IMG/VR virus record: IMGVR_UViG_3300047564_006544
Location: 16,005-80,004 of that record
Origin: a virus
DNA length: 64,000 nucleotides
Strand: one strand, 5' to 3'
In this document: piece by piece, positions 15,294-58,409 of the stretch
Numbering within the stretch: position 1 is the stretch's first letter
How the letters are laid out: each line of letters opens with the position of its first letter
Notes under the pieces: model-generated
What the model saw: the letters and a program-made list of their open reading frames with translations, nothing else
Told to the model about the DNA's origin: nothing
Database searches by the model: none
Program-made: the position numbers and the translations under genes

Positions 15294-17408
15294 TTAAGCA
15301 GATATATTACCAGTGTAAAAAGAAATAGAGCTATCTCCATTTATTTTTGAAACATCTAGAACATTCTCAAACCTTTCTTTTAGAGAGTCATCATGTGTAA
15401 TTACCAAAATCTTATATTTATTTTCAAGCTGCTTTATTATATTTACAAATAGAGTCTCTACACCACTTTTATCTAGAGGTGAATTTATTTCGTCAAGAAG
15501 CAGGAACTCTAGTGCAGAACCGCCATGTTGGGTTGCAATTTCTGACAGGGCGATTCTAAGTGATAGAGCTATTCTAAATTGCTCTCCACCACTGAGAGAG
15601 GAGAATCCGCAGAGAGCACCATCTTTCTTTACATTAAGATCAAGAGTTTCTACTGTAGAAATACCATCGGATCCAACCCTCTGTGTTTCTAAAGAAATTG
15701 AAAACTGATCAGAGATAGAAGAAAGAATTCTATTTGCTGTTCTCTGAAGATCTTCAATTACAGCCTCAAGAAGAAGTGCTTGAATTCCACTCTTTCCAAA
15801 CATTTTTACCATCTTGTCAAAGATTGCCATTTGCTCATTCTTTGAGTCAAAAGATTTCTTTAGTTCATTTAGCTCAATCTTCTTTGCCGATAAAGATTCT
15901 GTTTTCTCTCTAAGAGAGCCAACCTTTATTCCTGCCTGCAGTATTTCATTAGAAATGACTTGAAGCTTTTCCTTTCCTGCCTTTAAATCATCGTGTAGGA
16001 TTTGAAAATCTTCATTCTTTAGCGAATTTAAAATATCTTCATTTGCAGATATTTTTCTCTTTACTTCTACCATTCTTGAATAAAGATCTTCTTTTTCTTC
16101 TTCTCCAGCAGAGATTTCTTCTTTTAATATTTCTTTTTGAGAAAGAAGGTTTTTAATCTCTTCCTTTCCCCTCTCTATTTCTAGGTTATCTGCCTTTTGC
16201 TTCTCAAGTTCTTTTTTCAGCTCTGATAGGTACTGAATTCTTTTCTCTGCATTTGCCTTCTTTTTTGTATAGTAATCAACACTTGACTGATGCTCTGTGT
16301 GCAATCTTGATGCAATTTCTTCATTTACCTCCTGAAGACAAACATGACACTTTCCAGTGTGAAGATGAACATCAGAAAGCTCTTTTAGCTTTATCTTTGA
16401 TTGCTGAATTGATCCAGAATATTCAATCCACTCTGTGGACATTCTCTCAATCTTTTGCTCAACATCTGGATCAAAAGATAGTGTCTTGATCTTTTTTTCA
16501 AGTAGGCTTATTTTTGATACTAACGAATCGCTTCTCTCCAATCTTTTTGTAAGAGATTGTAATACTTGATCAAATCTAGCCTTTAGATCCTTTCCGGATG
16601 CCTTTAGAGAGGCTATCTCTGCGATTGCCTTATCCCAGCTTGCAGTATCAATGTTGTTTTTCATCTTAAGATACTTTTCGGAAAGTGCCTCTACAGACTC
16701 CTGCAGATCCTCTTTCTCTTTCGACTTTGTCTCAAGTATCTTTGTAGCAGTCAAAAGCTCTGCTTCACTAGCAATAAGAGCTTGAACCTCCGCATTTAAA
16801 GAGTCATATCTTGCCTGATATTTTACAATTTCAGTTTGAATATCTTTTGCTTTTTTCTTTGCTTCTTTTTCAAAAGAGTCCCATTTTGAAATATCTACAA
16901 TACTTTTAAGAATTTCTTTTTTCTTTGAAGCTTCTGATGTTGCAAATTCTGAGATATCATTCTGTCTAAAGTAAGCTGAATTTACAAATGTTTTATAATC
17001 AATCTTTAAAAGATTGACAATTCTGTCATTTGTTTCTCCTGATGTTGAGCCAGATAGTGACTTCCATTTTCCTTCTGAGTCAAGAGTAAAAAGATCTACT
17101 GTTGAAGTAGAAGTATTTCTTAGCCTAACTCTCTTTACGAGATAAGTTCCATCGCCATGAGAAAACTCCAACGAAACCTCACACTTATTTTCTCCCCATG
17201 TTATTACATCGTCCATTGTTGTTGCTCTGGACTTGTTATATAAACACCATAGGATTGATTCCATTATTGCAGATTTACCAGATCCATTTGATCTGTAATA
17301 ATCTCCATCAACAGAGCCAACTAGAAGTGCAGAGTTAAAAAGTGAAAAATCTATTTCACTTACTTTGTGAGAAAAGAAGTTTTCTAACTTTAGTTTCTTT
17401 GGAAGCAT
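15294..17408 (-). CDS. sbcC: SbcC/Rad50 (T4 gp46-like) SMC ATPase
   Basis: Walker A NGSGKS, coiled coil with CHVC zinc hook, LSGGE signature, LLLDE Walker B, ITH. Confidence 0.93.
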   Translation of the reverse strand: MLPKKLKLENFFSHKVSEIDFSLFNSALLVGSVDGDYYRSNGSGKSAIMESILWCLYNKSRATTMDDVITWGENKCEVSLEFSHGDGTYLVKRVRLRNTSTSTVDLFTLDSEGKWKSLSGSTSGETNDRIVNLLKIDYKTFVNSAYFRQNDISEFATSEASKKKEILKSIVDISKWDSFEKEAKKKAKDIQTEIVKYQARYDSLNAEVQALIASEAELLTATKILETKSKEKEDLQESVEALSEKYLKMKNNIDTASWDKAIAEIASLKASGKDLKARFDQVLQSLTKRLERSDSLVSKISLLEKKIKTLSFDPDVEQKIERMSTEWIEYSGSIQQSKIKLKELSDVHLHTGKCHVCLQEVNEEIASRLHTEHQSSVDYYTKKKANAEKRIQYLSELKKELEKQKADNLEIERGKEEIKNLLSQKEILKEEISAGEEEKEDLYSRMVEVKRKISANEDILNSLKNEDFQILHDDLKAGKEKLQVISNEILQAGIKVGSLREKTESLSAKKIELNELKKSFDSKNEQMAIFDKMVKMFGKSGIQALLLEAVIEDLQRTANRILSSISDQFSISLETQRVGSDGISTVETLDLNVKKDGALCGFSSLSGGEQFRIALSLRIALSEIATQHGGSALEFLLLDEINSPLDKSGVETLFVNIIKQLENKYKILVITHDDSLKERFENVLDVSKINGDSSISFYTGNISA

Positions 17409-36582: not shown

Positions 36583-37656
36583 CTAAATTGTTAATCCCTC
36601 TACAACATCTGTAGACGAAGAGTAATAGATTCTTTCCAACTCTGGGCACTCTACAGACAGCCTTGCTAGTATAAATTTTTTCATTAAATCAATTGATTCA
36701 AAAGTTAATAAATCGTTTTTGTAAAATAATTTATAAATATTTACTGCTTCTAAGATATCACATTTTGATATAATCAGATGATTTCCGCCAGCAGTATTTA
36801 GTGCAAAAATTAATCTATCAAGATTTAGATAGTTTACCTTACGACGGCGACCTGTTGTTGTTCCGTATTCTTGACCAGCATCTGCAATACTTAAAAGCTC
36901 TGGGTTATCAAAAAGTGTTTCTGGAAAATCTGGATCTTCTCCAGATCTTGTATCATAAATTTTTGCTACTGCAAAAATGTTTTTAATTTTCTTTGGTGAA
37001 AATCCAATTGAGCAAGCAGCATAAGGAAGTGTTTCGCTACTTGTTACATATGGATAATTTCCCCAATTTATATCAAGAAAGAATCCCTGAGCACCTTCGC
37101 AAAGTATGTTTCCATAAAGCCTTCCATCAAATAGGTGCTTTTTCCAGAAGGAATCTAACGCCGCAACATCTTTAAATTGAATTCCTGTTCTGGCATATTT
37201 ATCAGAATATGCTGGAGCTATTCCCTTTGATGTTGTTCCGAGTTTTTTTGCAAGATTTTTTCTATCTTCATCTATATGCTCTGCTGTTACGATGTGTGTA
37301 GATGGAGAAATCTTTATAAGGTTTGGATCAAATCCAGATTCTCTTAGATAAGAGAATTCTTCTTTTAATAGCTCTAGATTTACAACGCAACCTGGGCCAA
37401 TTAGTGAGGTAACTCCGTGAAATACTCCTGATGGAACCATATGTGTTTTGTATTTCTTACCACCTACAAACACTGTATGACCAGCATTTTGTCCGCCACC
37501 CCAACGTGCAACAAAATTATAGTGCTTATCATCTGCTCCAAAAATCTTTGCTGCTTTTGATTTAAAAGATGATAAGTAGCTTGATACTTTTCCTTTGCCA
37601 CCATCACCATAGTCTGCGCCGTACACAACATCAACAGAAATAATTTCGCGGCTCAT
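36583..37656 (-). CDS. purA: Adenylosuccinate synthetase (short form)
   Basis: YGDGGKGK, GGQNAGHT, GTTSKGIAPAY, EGAQG, YPYVTSS, EYGTTTGR.R, SKCD. Confidence 0.92.
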   Translation of the reverse strand: MSREIISVDVVYGADYGDGGKGKVSSYLSSFKSKAAKIFGADDKHYNFVARWGGGQNAGHTVFVGGKKYKTHMVPSGVFHGVTSLIGPGCVVNLELLKEEFSYLRESGFDPNLIKISPSTHIVTAEHIDEDRKNLAKKLGTTSKGIAPAYSDKYARTGIQFKDVAALDSFWKKHLFDGRLYGNILCEGAQGFFLDINWGNYPYVTSSETLPYAACSIGFSPKKIKNIFAVAKIYDTRSGEDPDFPETLFDNPELLSIADAGQEYGTTTGRRRKVNYLNLDRLIFALNTAGGNHLIISKCDILEAVNIYKLFYKNDLLTFESIDLMKKFILARLSVECPELERIYYSSSTDVVEGLTI

Positions 37657-56109: not shown

Positions 56110-57072
56110 TTAGTAGCGATAGCGTCCTTTCCAATCGCTATAATCACCATCCTTCCTTGCTATACACTGCTCAACCAAGCGATTAAGACCAAGCTTTGAT
56201 GCTACAGGAGCAGCAAACATTAGGTCTTGACGCTTTAGGTGTGGAAGGATCATCTGTTGAACACCATAATCTTCACAGGAAGCAAACTTTCCAATTACAG
56301 ATTGTGGATAAGCAATTCGCTCTGTAATCATTTCATCTGGAAGTGATAGACGCTTTGTCTCCTCAATTCTTCTTGTAAAAATTCTTACAACTGACTGCTT
56401 GTTCTTTGCATGACCCGAGGAAACAAGCTCAGAGATAATATCCTCTGGAAATACACTACACTTCTCTGCAGAAGAAATAATATGATCCCTTTTGTCGGTA
56501 TATCCCTTGCTTCTTTCAACCCTAGACCACACCATAGAATAAAAGTCAGAGTCTTTTGATCTGGCAAGACCAGAATCTGTCCAGAACCTAACATTCTCCT
56601 TGTTATTCTCAATATAAGCTTGAGTTAGCCGCTTTGTATAATCAATTTCAAAGTTAGGATCATCAAGCAGAGTTGAGATATTTACCTTTGCTTGCTTTAT
56701 CTCAACTGAATCAGAATCATCTGGAAGCTTATTCCAAACATCTGTCAAGATGCCCTTAATAAACTCCTTATTTTCTGCACCAATTCCATTCTTAAATTTT
56801 GGAGAATAATAATCAGACCAGGTGTAGTATCGACAATAAAGCTCAAAGATTGAGCCTCTATTATCATAAAAGTTATTCCAAGTCCAAGCAAGAGCATTTG
56901 GATTCATCAAAATAGCAAATTCATTACCTCGCTCTCCTCGAGTATAATAGCTGTTATTATCACAAAAAATACTCTTAGCAGATGCTTTAAAAAGATCCAT
57001 TAGGGTTTGATGATCTGGCTGCCAATCAGAATCAACAGAAACAGTAGACAGAATATCCTTAAGTTGCGACAT
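56110..57072 (-). CDS. Helical hypothetical protein (possible distant paralog of 39728-40612)
   Basis: 320 aa; AGGAG SD; similar C-terminal helical pattern. Confidence 0.7.
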   Translation of the reverse strand: MSQLKDILSTVSVDSDWQPDHQTLMDLFKASAKSIFCDNNSYYTRGERGNEFAILMNPNALAWTWNNFYDNRGSIFELYCRYYTWSDYYSPKFKNGIGAENKEFIKGILTDVWNKLPDDSDSVEIKQAKVNISTLLDDPNFEIDYTKRLTQAYIENNKENVRFWTDSGLARSKDSDFYSMVWSRVERSKGYTDKRDHIISSAEKCSVFPEDIISELVSSGHAKNKQSVVRIFTRRIEETKRLSLPDEMITERIAYPQSVIGKFASCEDYGVQQMILPHLKRQDLMFAAPVASKLGLNRLVEQCIARKDGDYSDWKGRYRY

Positions 57073-57080
57073 TTATACTC

Positions 57081-57459
57081 CTAATAGTTAAGAATTTCCT
57101 TTACCCAATTACCATCAGCATCAACATAATGAATCCTCTTGATTCCCGCACGACGAATATGGGTCATGCAGTATCGACAAGGACGAGAAATGCAAAGAGA
57201 ACCATCCTTTCTGAAGCGAGCAACCCAAAGAACGTCCCTTGAATTAGCCCTTGCCTTCTCAATTGCCTGCATTTCAGCATGACAGCAATAGGCAACTTCC
57301 TTCTTATCTGCAAAGAATCTACGAAACTTAGGAGAGGACTTCTCTCCGTTCGTTCCGTAAATGACGGTATTGCCTCGTGGAATCCACGCAATAAGATGAA
57401 ATGGCTGACCGTTAGAAAGAGCAGTTTCGCGAAGAAACTCCTAGAGACACCCTAGGCAT
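57081..57459 (-). CDS. Zinc-dependent cytidine/dCMP-type deaminase, interrupted by a +1 frameshift near the 5' end
   Basis: Frame open from 57440: EFLRETALSNGQPFHLIAWI...CCHAEMQA...RPCRYC; the SD-led ATG (57459) is 1 nt out of frame. Confidence 0.8.
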
Positions 57460-57492
57460 GAAAACCTCCTTATATCGTTGAGCACCATGCTC

Positions 57493-57526
57493 CCCTATAA
57501 TGTACGCACCGCGAGGAAAAGGTCAA
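57493..57526 (-). promoter_or_regulatory. Sigma70-type promoter (class A) for deaminase operon
   Basis: TTGACC-16nt(ending cGGTGcg)-TACATT-ATAGGG. Confidence 0.65.
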
Positions 57527-57983: not shown

Positions 57984-58409
57984 TTAAGTTTTTTTCACGG
58001 CATCGATCAGCCAAGAGGAAGATTGGGTTTTTCCGCCGCCAATATTCCACAACATTTCGATTCCAAGCTCGGCGCAAACGTCGCCCTCTGGTGTGTTTCC
58101 TGCTTTTCTATCGCCACCATTTGCAAAATAATCTGGACGAATACGACGGAGAGCTTCGCAAACAGTTCCATCTGAATCATCAACAGGAACAACAGACACA
58201 ACCCCTTTAAATGCAAGAAGAATTTCGGCTCTTTCTTCCCAAGACATAAATTTATAGCCCTTCTTCCTCATAAGCCAATCGTCAGAATTTAAAATAACTA
58301 CTACATCGCCGTAAGTAGCTGCCTCAAGAATCATTCTAACGTGACCAGAATGACATGGATCACAACCACCTGATACAGCAACTACTTTTCTTTTATTATT
58401 AATACTCAT
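57984..58409 (-). CDS. Cytidylyltransferase-like (TagD/RfaE/RibL family) nucleotidyltransferase
   Basis: SGGCDPCHSGH (HxGH), LNSD.WL.RKKG, FANGGDR, GGGKTQSSS. Confidence 0.9.
   Translation of the reverse strand: MSINNKRKVVAVSGGCDPCHSGHVRMILEAATYGDVVVILNSDDWLMRKKGYKFMSWEERAEILLAFKGVVSVVPVDDSDGTVCEALRRIRPDYFANGGDRKAGNTPEGDVCAELGIEMLWNIGGGKTQSSSWLIDAVKKT

Follow-up and report, generated by a model that had tools for sequence, protein, structure and literature searches.

The stretch of DNA analyzed here (64,000 nt, referred to as the window) covers positions 16,005 to 80,004 of the IMG/VR virus record IMGVR_UViG_3300047564_006544, a contig of 80 kb with a G+C content of 36% and an estimated completeness of 24%. 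The record originates from an uncultured phage, and sequencing runs of 16 studies, mostly on freshwater, contain part of the stretch. The locus of interest is on the minus strand. A consensus scan revealed a sigma-70-like promoter (TTGACC-16-TACATT, 57499-57526), which is nearly invariant in the related loci L002, L004, and L009. A small hairpin read off the sequence (GAGCA-TGG-TGCTC, 57480-57492) is located at the predicted 5' end of the mRNA. Its stem is preserved in the same three loci, with only the first loop base varying (T/C/G), and it may be considered a putative 5'-end stabilizer. Between the window and L004, sequence identity amounts to 83% over promoter and leader (57480-57526) but to just 67% over the coding region.

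The leader carries the Shine-Dalgarno (SD) sequence AGGAGG (57465-57470), which is followed by a 5 nt spacer and an ATG (57459-57457); nearly all relatives have a comparable SD, 4-9 nt ahead of the corresponding start. The frame set by this ATG (frame 0) reads ATG CCT AGG GTG TCT CTA GGA GTT ... TTC TAA and represents a mini-ORF of 15 codons (MPRVSLGVSSRNCSF, 57412-57459) which ends at the stop codon TAA (57414-57412). The body of a deaminase gene is found in the +1 frame (57081-57440; 119 codons plus the stop at 57083-57081). This frame is open directly after a TAG, from EFLRETALSNG through KEILNY, and codes for the catalytic HAE (57273-57281) and the zinc-binding PCxxC (PCRYC, 57168-57182), both of which are invariant in alignments A1 and A6. 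The earliest ATG, GTG, or TTG in the +1 frame is the Met codon directly past HAE. Re-reading of the sequence confirmed what the first-pass annotation had observed: the sole well-placed start, the ATG behind the SD, is in frame 0, and the enzyme is encoded in the +1 frame without a start codon of its own. As called, the window's gene is a 63-aa ORF (57081-57272) devoid of the catalytic His and Glu. A protein of 49 aa (P0013) is 100% identical over two stretches to the region 57081-57272 and is devoid of the PCxxC segment, which points to a deletion allele or to an artefact of assembly in another sample.

The next gene has its SD in overlap with the stop codon of the deaminase gene (TAT TAG GAG TAT AAATG; 57070-57090, minus strand), which makes translational coupling of this downstream ORF (56110-57072; 320 aa, no assigned function) to the deaminase probable. 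The junction between the two is identical in L002 and L004. Two genes upstream of the deaminase (57984-58409, minus strand), a cytidylyltransferase-like protein of 141 aa is encoded, for which the best family match is heptose 1-phosphate adenylyltransferase, RfaE domain II.

The predicted mature product has 125 aa (6 + 119). The zinc-binding motifs are HAE at residues 54-56 and PCRYC at residues 87-91. The protein matches Pfam family PF00383 (dCMP_cyt_deam_1; 32.7 bits compared to a cut-off of 25) and phrog_174 (dCMP deaminase; 1.8e-9). The AlphaFold model (mean pLDDT 75.5) has the CDA fold with the element order alpha-beta-beta-alpha-beta-alpha-beta-beta, and its helix 1 (residues 2-8) is positioned immediately past the point at which the frame changes. 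Foldseek assigned a probability of 1.0 to CDA and dCMP deaminases, the top fold matches being cytidine, dCMP, and blasticidin-S deaminases. Active-site motifs, profile matches, and the modeled fold agree in placing the protein in the CDA superfamily. A TadA-type deaminase had been suggested initially, but no specific likeness to TadA was found, and there is no TadA entry among the matches listed by Foldseek and by the sequence search of PDB. The window protein has its CDA fold and HAE...PCxxC zinc site in common with small phage dCMP deaminases, such as that of cyanophage S-TIM5 (PDB 4p9c), and with tetrameric cytidine deaminases (1mq0, 1ux1). This likeness is weak (profile E-value 0.0045, TM-score 0.5-0.63, sequence identity 13-26%) and, unlike the window gene, the genes for S-TIM5-type and tetrameric deaminases have ordinary starts.

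Relatives were gathered by a protein search of viral and metagenome contigs. The frame break is present in all fetched loci of the window's clade (L002/L003/L007, L004-L006, L008-L012) and also in the more distant carriers L071, L153, L154, and L157. Thirteen distinct sequences have a start that is out of frame together with a deaminase frame devoid of a canonical start. Within the clade, protein sequence identity to the window is 100% for L005 and L006, which are from other assemblies, 95% for L002, L003, and L007, about 63% for L004 and L009, 62% for L008, 61% for L010 and L011, and 39% for L012. The common layout is a good SD followed by ATG YCN ARG GTG TYT STA G, with the deaminase right behind the TAG of the +1 frame. 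The core GTG-TYT-STA-G or a close variant of it occurs in 11 of the 13 sequences (ten lineages), down to 39% protein sequence identity.

A frame break in a single metagenome contig could be due to a one-base assembly error or could mark a recent pseudogene, and the first-pass annotation had given an error or inactivation the same odds as recoding, to be settled by reads or close homologs with a continuous frame. We consider this explanation to be of negligible probability. Contigs from three other DNA runs, which belong to different studies and one of which is 127.5 kb long, cover 57435-57460 without any indel, and a contig from an RNA library (CTCTAGGAG) is gap-free, reaching into the motif and ending at 57446. 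The close homologs share the break rather than having a continuous frame. The same break is seen in independent assemblies, in independent studies, and in sequences with as little as 39% identity, while the catalytic motifs are intact. Error and inactivation are also excluded by the switch of frame at the motif and by purifying selection on the deaminase ORF, as detailed below.

When the window is compared to L002, the single difference ahead of the motif is synonymous in frame 0. In the 60 nt past the motif, all seven differences are synonymous in the +1 frame and non-synonymous in both frame 0 and frame +2; selection in the +1 frame starts at the second codon past the TAG. Over the whole ORF, 25 codon differences are synonymous and 6 change the amino acid. 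The corresponding values for L004 versus L009 are 25 and 5. These comparisons indicate that the deaminase ORF is under purifying selection and that the frame under selection switches exactly at (A/G)G-GUG-UYU-SUA-G, a motif which is kept down to about 39% protein sequence identity. The fact that the break and the 10-base motif have been kept in many distant relatives argues that the frame break is a selected recoding signal and not an error. The need for +1 recoding, as initially proposed, is thus supported by a break that is real and under selection.

The product that would result from skipping one base, MPRVSL-EFLRETALSNG, had been proposed already in the first-pass annotation. It is supported by the alignment with the unbroken homolog P0018 (MPSLPLEQAREIALANG), which is gap-free across the junction, with identities at M1, P2, L6, E7, R10, E11, A13, L14, N16, and G17. 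P0018 is the most notable case among unbroken homologs with which the N-termini predicted for the fusions can be aligned gap-free. Conservation of the mini-ORF is limited to its first six codons, and these are the ones which are predicted to enter the protein.

Rare start codons occur in bacteria, and an explanation without any frameshift would be a non-canonical start past the TAG (ATT at Ile17, CTT, or ATC), with the mini-ORF acting as a regulatory leader. Consistent with this, the protein P0003 from the clade begins with MRDLAFSNG at the matching place. However, no candidate codon is conserved: at the position of the P0003 Met, the codons CTT, CTT, and ATC are found, and other sequences differ. 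Furthermore, purifying selection in the +1 frame acts on codons 2-16 past the TAG, and these codons code for helix 1, so that ribosomes must have entered the +1 frame no more than one or two codons from the TAG. The upstream ATG, the SD, and the motif would be left without an explanation. We regard a non-canonical start as very improbable.

A quick tree was computed from the proteins derived from the loci; it is based on few columns and many forks are unresolved. The six closest members form one clade (SH-aLRT 98), to which L012 and L157 are the sister group (82). The other frame-broken members are interspersed among unbroken ones, and at least two changes of state are needed to account for the well-supported branches.

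The recoding motif of the window (AGG GTG TCT CTA G, 57441-57453, minus strand) consists of an SD-like GGTG (57451-57448), the E-site codon TCT (57447-57445), the last frame-0 codon CTA (57444-57442), and the G which is predicted to be skipped (57441); the TAG of the +1 frame is at 57443-57441. In L002, L004, L006, L008-L012, and L071, the core GTG-TYT-STA-G is unchanged or almost unchanged; it is present as a variant in L153 and L157 and does not occur in L154. Its GTG is invariant in all 11 motif-bearing sequences although GTG accounts for just 5% of the Val codons of this phage. The base ahead of GTG is a G even when the encoded residue changes (AAG or AGG being replaced by TCG in L071), and the base following STA is a G in 11 of 11. 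It follows from these patterns that the motif is evidently constrained at the nucleotide level, beyond the amino acids for which it codes.

The genes of this phage use SDs, with an SD core at 59% of them compared to 5% of random positions. At -5.9 kcal/mol, the pairing of GGUG with the anti-SD falls into the lowest 3% when in-frame positions of this phage's genes are ranked. Nine of the 11 motif-bearing sequences have the arrangement (A/G)GGUG-NNN-SUA, at about -5 to -6 kcal/mol. As for the SD-like element, L010 has a weak one (-2.5 kcal/mol), in L153 it lies one codon away from this position, and L154 has none. The last frame-0 codon is CUA, or GUA in L008, and the +1 codon UAG has, as read from the sequence, a middle-base mismatch with the anticodons for CUA and for GUA. 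The frame-0 codons in the A site (GGA, GAG, GGG, GUA) are all sense codons and are not conserved. GGA is the commonest Gly codon (50%) and CUA and GUA are common in this phage, although the tRNA pool of the host may differ. There is no conserved 3' sequence past the G among the relatives. Nor was a downstream stimulatory structure found: RNAalifold gave no pairs, and the downstream folding z-scores range from -1.9 to +1.1. No Rfam family, tRNA-like ones included, matches near the site.

In the viral collection, the exact core was found at deaminase loci only, and the motif was thus rejected as a general phage-wide signal. A relaxed pattern retrieved 82 loci from this collection, almost all of them by chance, and yielded one new member, L071. 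Elsewhere in the window, the decamer GTGTTTGTAG occurs in frame 0 at 37464-37473 (minus strand), with A rather than G ahead of the GTG. As it lies in frame within an ordinary ORF of 357 aa (36583-37656), the core alone is evidently tolerated within a normal gene. A different occurrence was noticed at L038 (positions 256-288) and L041, which represent the same element. Here, an SD is followed by ATG TCC AAG GTG TCT CTA G and the mini-ORF codes for MSKVSLDNLT and then stops. Its first six codons match the deaminase leader, and an unrelated gene with its own SD comes next. This element may be due to chance or may be a displaced leader.

The first-pass annotation had noted a hairpin at the junction (CCTAGGGTGTCTCTAGG, 57440-57456, minus strand), described as a 5-bp stem with a 7-nt loop that resembles a tRNA anticodon arm. 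A hairpin is indeed present in the window strain, but not in that shape: ViennaRNA folds CCUAGGGUGUCUCUAGG into 7 bp with a 3-nt loop (-8.3 kcal/mol, z = -2.0). It is not conserved. The Pro codon CCT is replaced by CCA in L006 and L002 and by CCC in L004, which is synonymous in frame 0 and breaks the stem, so that the stem is already broken in the near-identical L006. The relatives fold with 0 to -3.9 kcal/mol and z-scores of at least -1.2, which is no better than shuffled sequences, and RNAalifold detects no consensus pair. The idea of an anticodon-arm mimic is therefore abandoned, and the hairpin is judged incidental. Aligning the 5' ends of the homologs, as had been suggested, thus gave a split result in which the frame break is conserved and the hairpin is not. 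The AGGAG at the junction, described initially as an internal SD-like sequence, fares no better, with relatives reading GAG, AGT, GGT, TAC, or TAT after the TAG; by this comparison, the conserved SD-like element is the GGTG upstream of the shift codon rather than the AGGAG. Autoregulation by the deaminase, which had been proposed as a way of limiting a mutagenic enzyme, is pure speculation. In a consensus scan, the hairpin together with the T-rich AGTTTCTTCG (57430-57456, minus strand) scored as terminator-like (1 found, 0.6 expected); this feature is not conserved in the relatives.

Taking these data together, we consider it likely that the deaminase is expressed via a programmed +1 ribosomal frameshift six codons past initiation. 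Ribosomes would start at the ATG and make Met-Pro-Arg-Val-Ser-Leu. With the Leu-tRNA on CUA in the P site, the GGUG three bases upstream would pair with the 3' end of the 16S rRNA. The next tRNA would then be accepted on GAG rather than GGA, with G 57441 being skipped, and the shift would yield the deaminase of 125 aa which starts with MPRVSL-EFLRETALSNG. Ribosomes which do not shift would stop at the UAA after 15 codons. Because the +1 frame is closed by the TAG, the shift cannot precede this TAG. The closure by TAG, selection from the second codon onwards, and the lack of a conserved start combine to suggest that CUA is the last codon read in frame 0 and that the G is the base skipped. As a tRNA reading CUA cannot re-pair on UAG, the shift would be of the no-slippage kind, similar to that of Ty3 and unlike the slip in prfB. 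GGUG possibly helps the shift, by analogy to prfB. The likely purpose is that a potentially harmful nucleotide or nucleic-acid deaminase is held to a set small fraction of initiations.

There are points against the frameshift reading. The site is devoid of the features which drive known +1 sites. The model does not account for the fact that the skipped base is always a G, which preserves the UAG in the +1 frame. The SD-like element is weak in one carrier of the break (L010) and missing from another (L154), and the core decamer is also found in frame in an ordinary gene (window position 37473).

An invariant fourth base G would fit a reading of SUAG as one codon by a dedicated phage or host tRNA with an enlarged anticodon loop, and such tRNA-driven recoding would call for neither slippery nor hungry-codon logic. 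However, neither the 80-kb record nor the contigs of L002 (81 kb) and L004 (42 kb), all of them fragments, yielded a tRNA, and the tRNAs on the contigs of L071 and L153 are ordinary. The tRNA search covered contig fragments which are 15-89% complete, and absence from these is not a proof. There is no tRNA-like Rfam match near the gene, and the four-base word itself varies (CUAG, GUAG, CUAC) with no co-varying partner seen. We thus consider a quadruplet-reading tRNA quite improbable and retain the programmed +1 frameshift as the preferred reading.

Several other candidates were rejected. Readthrough of the TAG from an upstream ATG (57488) is at odds with the upstream frame, which is not conserved and is stopped in L004; L012 has a TAA in the +1 frame five codons ahead of the TAG. 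A changed genetic code is dismissed because TAG terminates 18 of 58 long ORFs and is thus an ordinary stop codon in this phage. For transcriptional slippage, there is no homopolymer but just 2-3 G, and the RNA-library contig is unedited, which is weak evidence with the contig ending at 57446. A hop from CUA to a downstream Leu codon would find a CUU 10 nt on in the window, but L012 and others are devoid of a landing codon.

A scan which included more distant homologs retrieved 80 further viral loci. Among these, 44 distinct sequences form a sister group in which a well-placed SD-ATG is likewise one base out of the deaminase frame. They share an invariant in-frame GTG, never ATG or TTG, exactly 7 nt past the A of the ATG. 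The pattern is ATG-YCN-R-GTG-TAY-TAY, and the mini-ORF ends after 5-8 codons. The GTG-type loci are L101, L103-L152, L155, L158, L159, L169, L172, and L174, with the 5' ends lying about 20 nt before each match start. In this layout, the mini-ORF may be a decoy or its start may compete with the GTG, ribosomes may restart, or they may shift to the +1 frame early. Still more distant relatives, including those of the cultured phages SCTP-2, Cr30, and RsoM2USA, have ordinary in-frame ATG starts. A search of GenBank phages gave no DNA match to the region and, at the protein level, only distant relatives with ordinary starts, so that the arrangement was not found in cultured phages. In bacterial genomes, no relative with the patterns of the clade was found. 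Because the 44 GTG-type relatives share the out-of-frame SD-ATG, the out-of-frame loading site is an old feature of the subfamily. By the same comparison, no start codon is left in the window's clade, where recoding would be obligatory.

The GTG-type layout, with its GTG 7 nt past an out-of-frame ATG and a mini-ORF stop 5-8 codons in, would suit termination and reinitiation, whereby ribosomes terminate at the end of the mini-ORF, scan locally, and start again in the deaminase frame. However, sequences of the window's clade have no ATG, GTG, or TTG between the TAG and the stop of the mini-ORF, nor within 40 codons beyond, and we consider reinitiation extremely improbable as an explanation for the window. 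A programmed frameshift thus remains the favored reading, and it could be extended in that the whole family, frame-broken and GTG-type members alike, uses one start-proximal +1 decoding event at NUA-N. After loading at the SD-ATG, ribosomes would have moved to the +1 frame by the fifth or sixth codon; (A/G)GUG would be an rRNA-pairing stimulator and not a start, or a dedicated tRNA would read four bases. We consider this extension unlikely. If true, it would define a new class of +1 signal which involves neither a slippery sequence nor a stop or rare codon and which is widespread in aquatic phages.

The arrangement has consequences for annotation. Library proteins P0001, P0002, P0004, P0008, P0014, and P0020, as well as P0021, P0026, P0028, P0030, and P0036 from the same family, begin at an internal GTG, TTG, or ATG near the HL(V/I)AW strand. 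P0004 matches L008 and P0002 matches L004-like loci, both of which are frame-broken, which shows that gene callers truncate these genes. Since such genes are truncated or missed, with database entries for the clade beginning at internal codons, phage metagenomes are under-annotated for this family. Literature searches and reviews of frameshifting yielded no description of this site, and our comparisons indicate that the 5' end of this phage deaminase gene carries a +1 recoding signal of a type not described so far. The signal is short, strongly conserved, and six codons from the start, with neither a slippery codon nor a stop or rare codon. It could thus reveal the minimal needs of +1 shifting on bacterial ribosomes and could tell whether an SD-like element alone drives a +1 shift.

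Programmed +1 frameshifts are rare in bacteria and phages, the textbook cases being prfB and a few phage structural genes, and each of these depends on a slippery codon in combination with a stop or rare codon. The signal in prfB, the gene for release factor 2, is AGGGGG-UAU-CUU-UGA-C (PMC12421855; PMC5009743), and the stimulator is defined by a spacing of 3 nt between the SD and the P-site codon (PMC12421855). The window shares with prfB a short frame-0 ORF which leads into a functional protein in the +1 frame, an SD-like element exactly 3 nt ahead of a P-site Leu codon, and the conservation of the signal across a wide clade. In contrast to prfB, the A site in the window is not occupied by a frame-0 stop codon, a CUU_U slippery run is missing, and the P-site tRNA cannot re-pair in the +1 frame. 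The shift occurs at codon 6 rather than at codon 26 as in Escherichia coli prfB, and the SD-like element is GGUG rather than a run of G. While the stop in prfB (UGA-C) is recognized by the gene's own product, the product in the window is a deaminase with no known link to the signal.

The yeast Ty3 site (GCG-AGU-U; PMC5009743) resembles the window in that the P-site tRNA does not re-pair and the incoming tRNA is taken one base downstream. Ty3 relies on slow decoding of the A-site codon and on a 3' stimulator of 14 nt (PMC5009743), whereas the window has an A-site codon which is not conserved and not rare in the phage and has no conserved 3' element. Also unlike Ty3, the system in the window is bacterial and has an SD-like 5' element.

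Frameshifting in a gene for a small CDA-fold deaminase is not without precedent, as it is described for cdd from Bacillus subtilis (A_CGA_AAG; cited in PMC5009743). The cdd shift is an incidental, low-level -1 event at the 3' end which extends the protein, and it is unrelated to the window in sequence and logic. PSA likewise has programmed +1 frameshifts in phage genes, as proposed for the window. In PSA, ribosomes shift on a Pro codon close to the 3' end of the gene, beside a pseudoknot or a stop codon, which results in C-terminally extended structural proteins, whereas the shift in the window would occur at the 5' end, on Leu or Val, and would be obligatory for a functional product.
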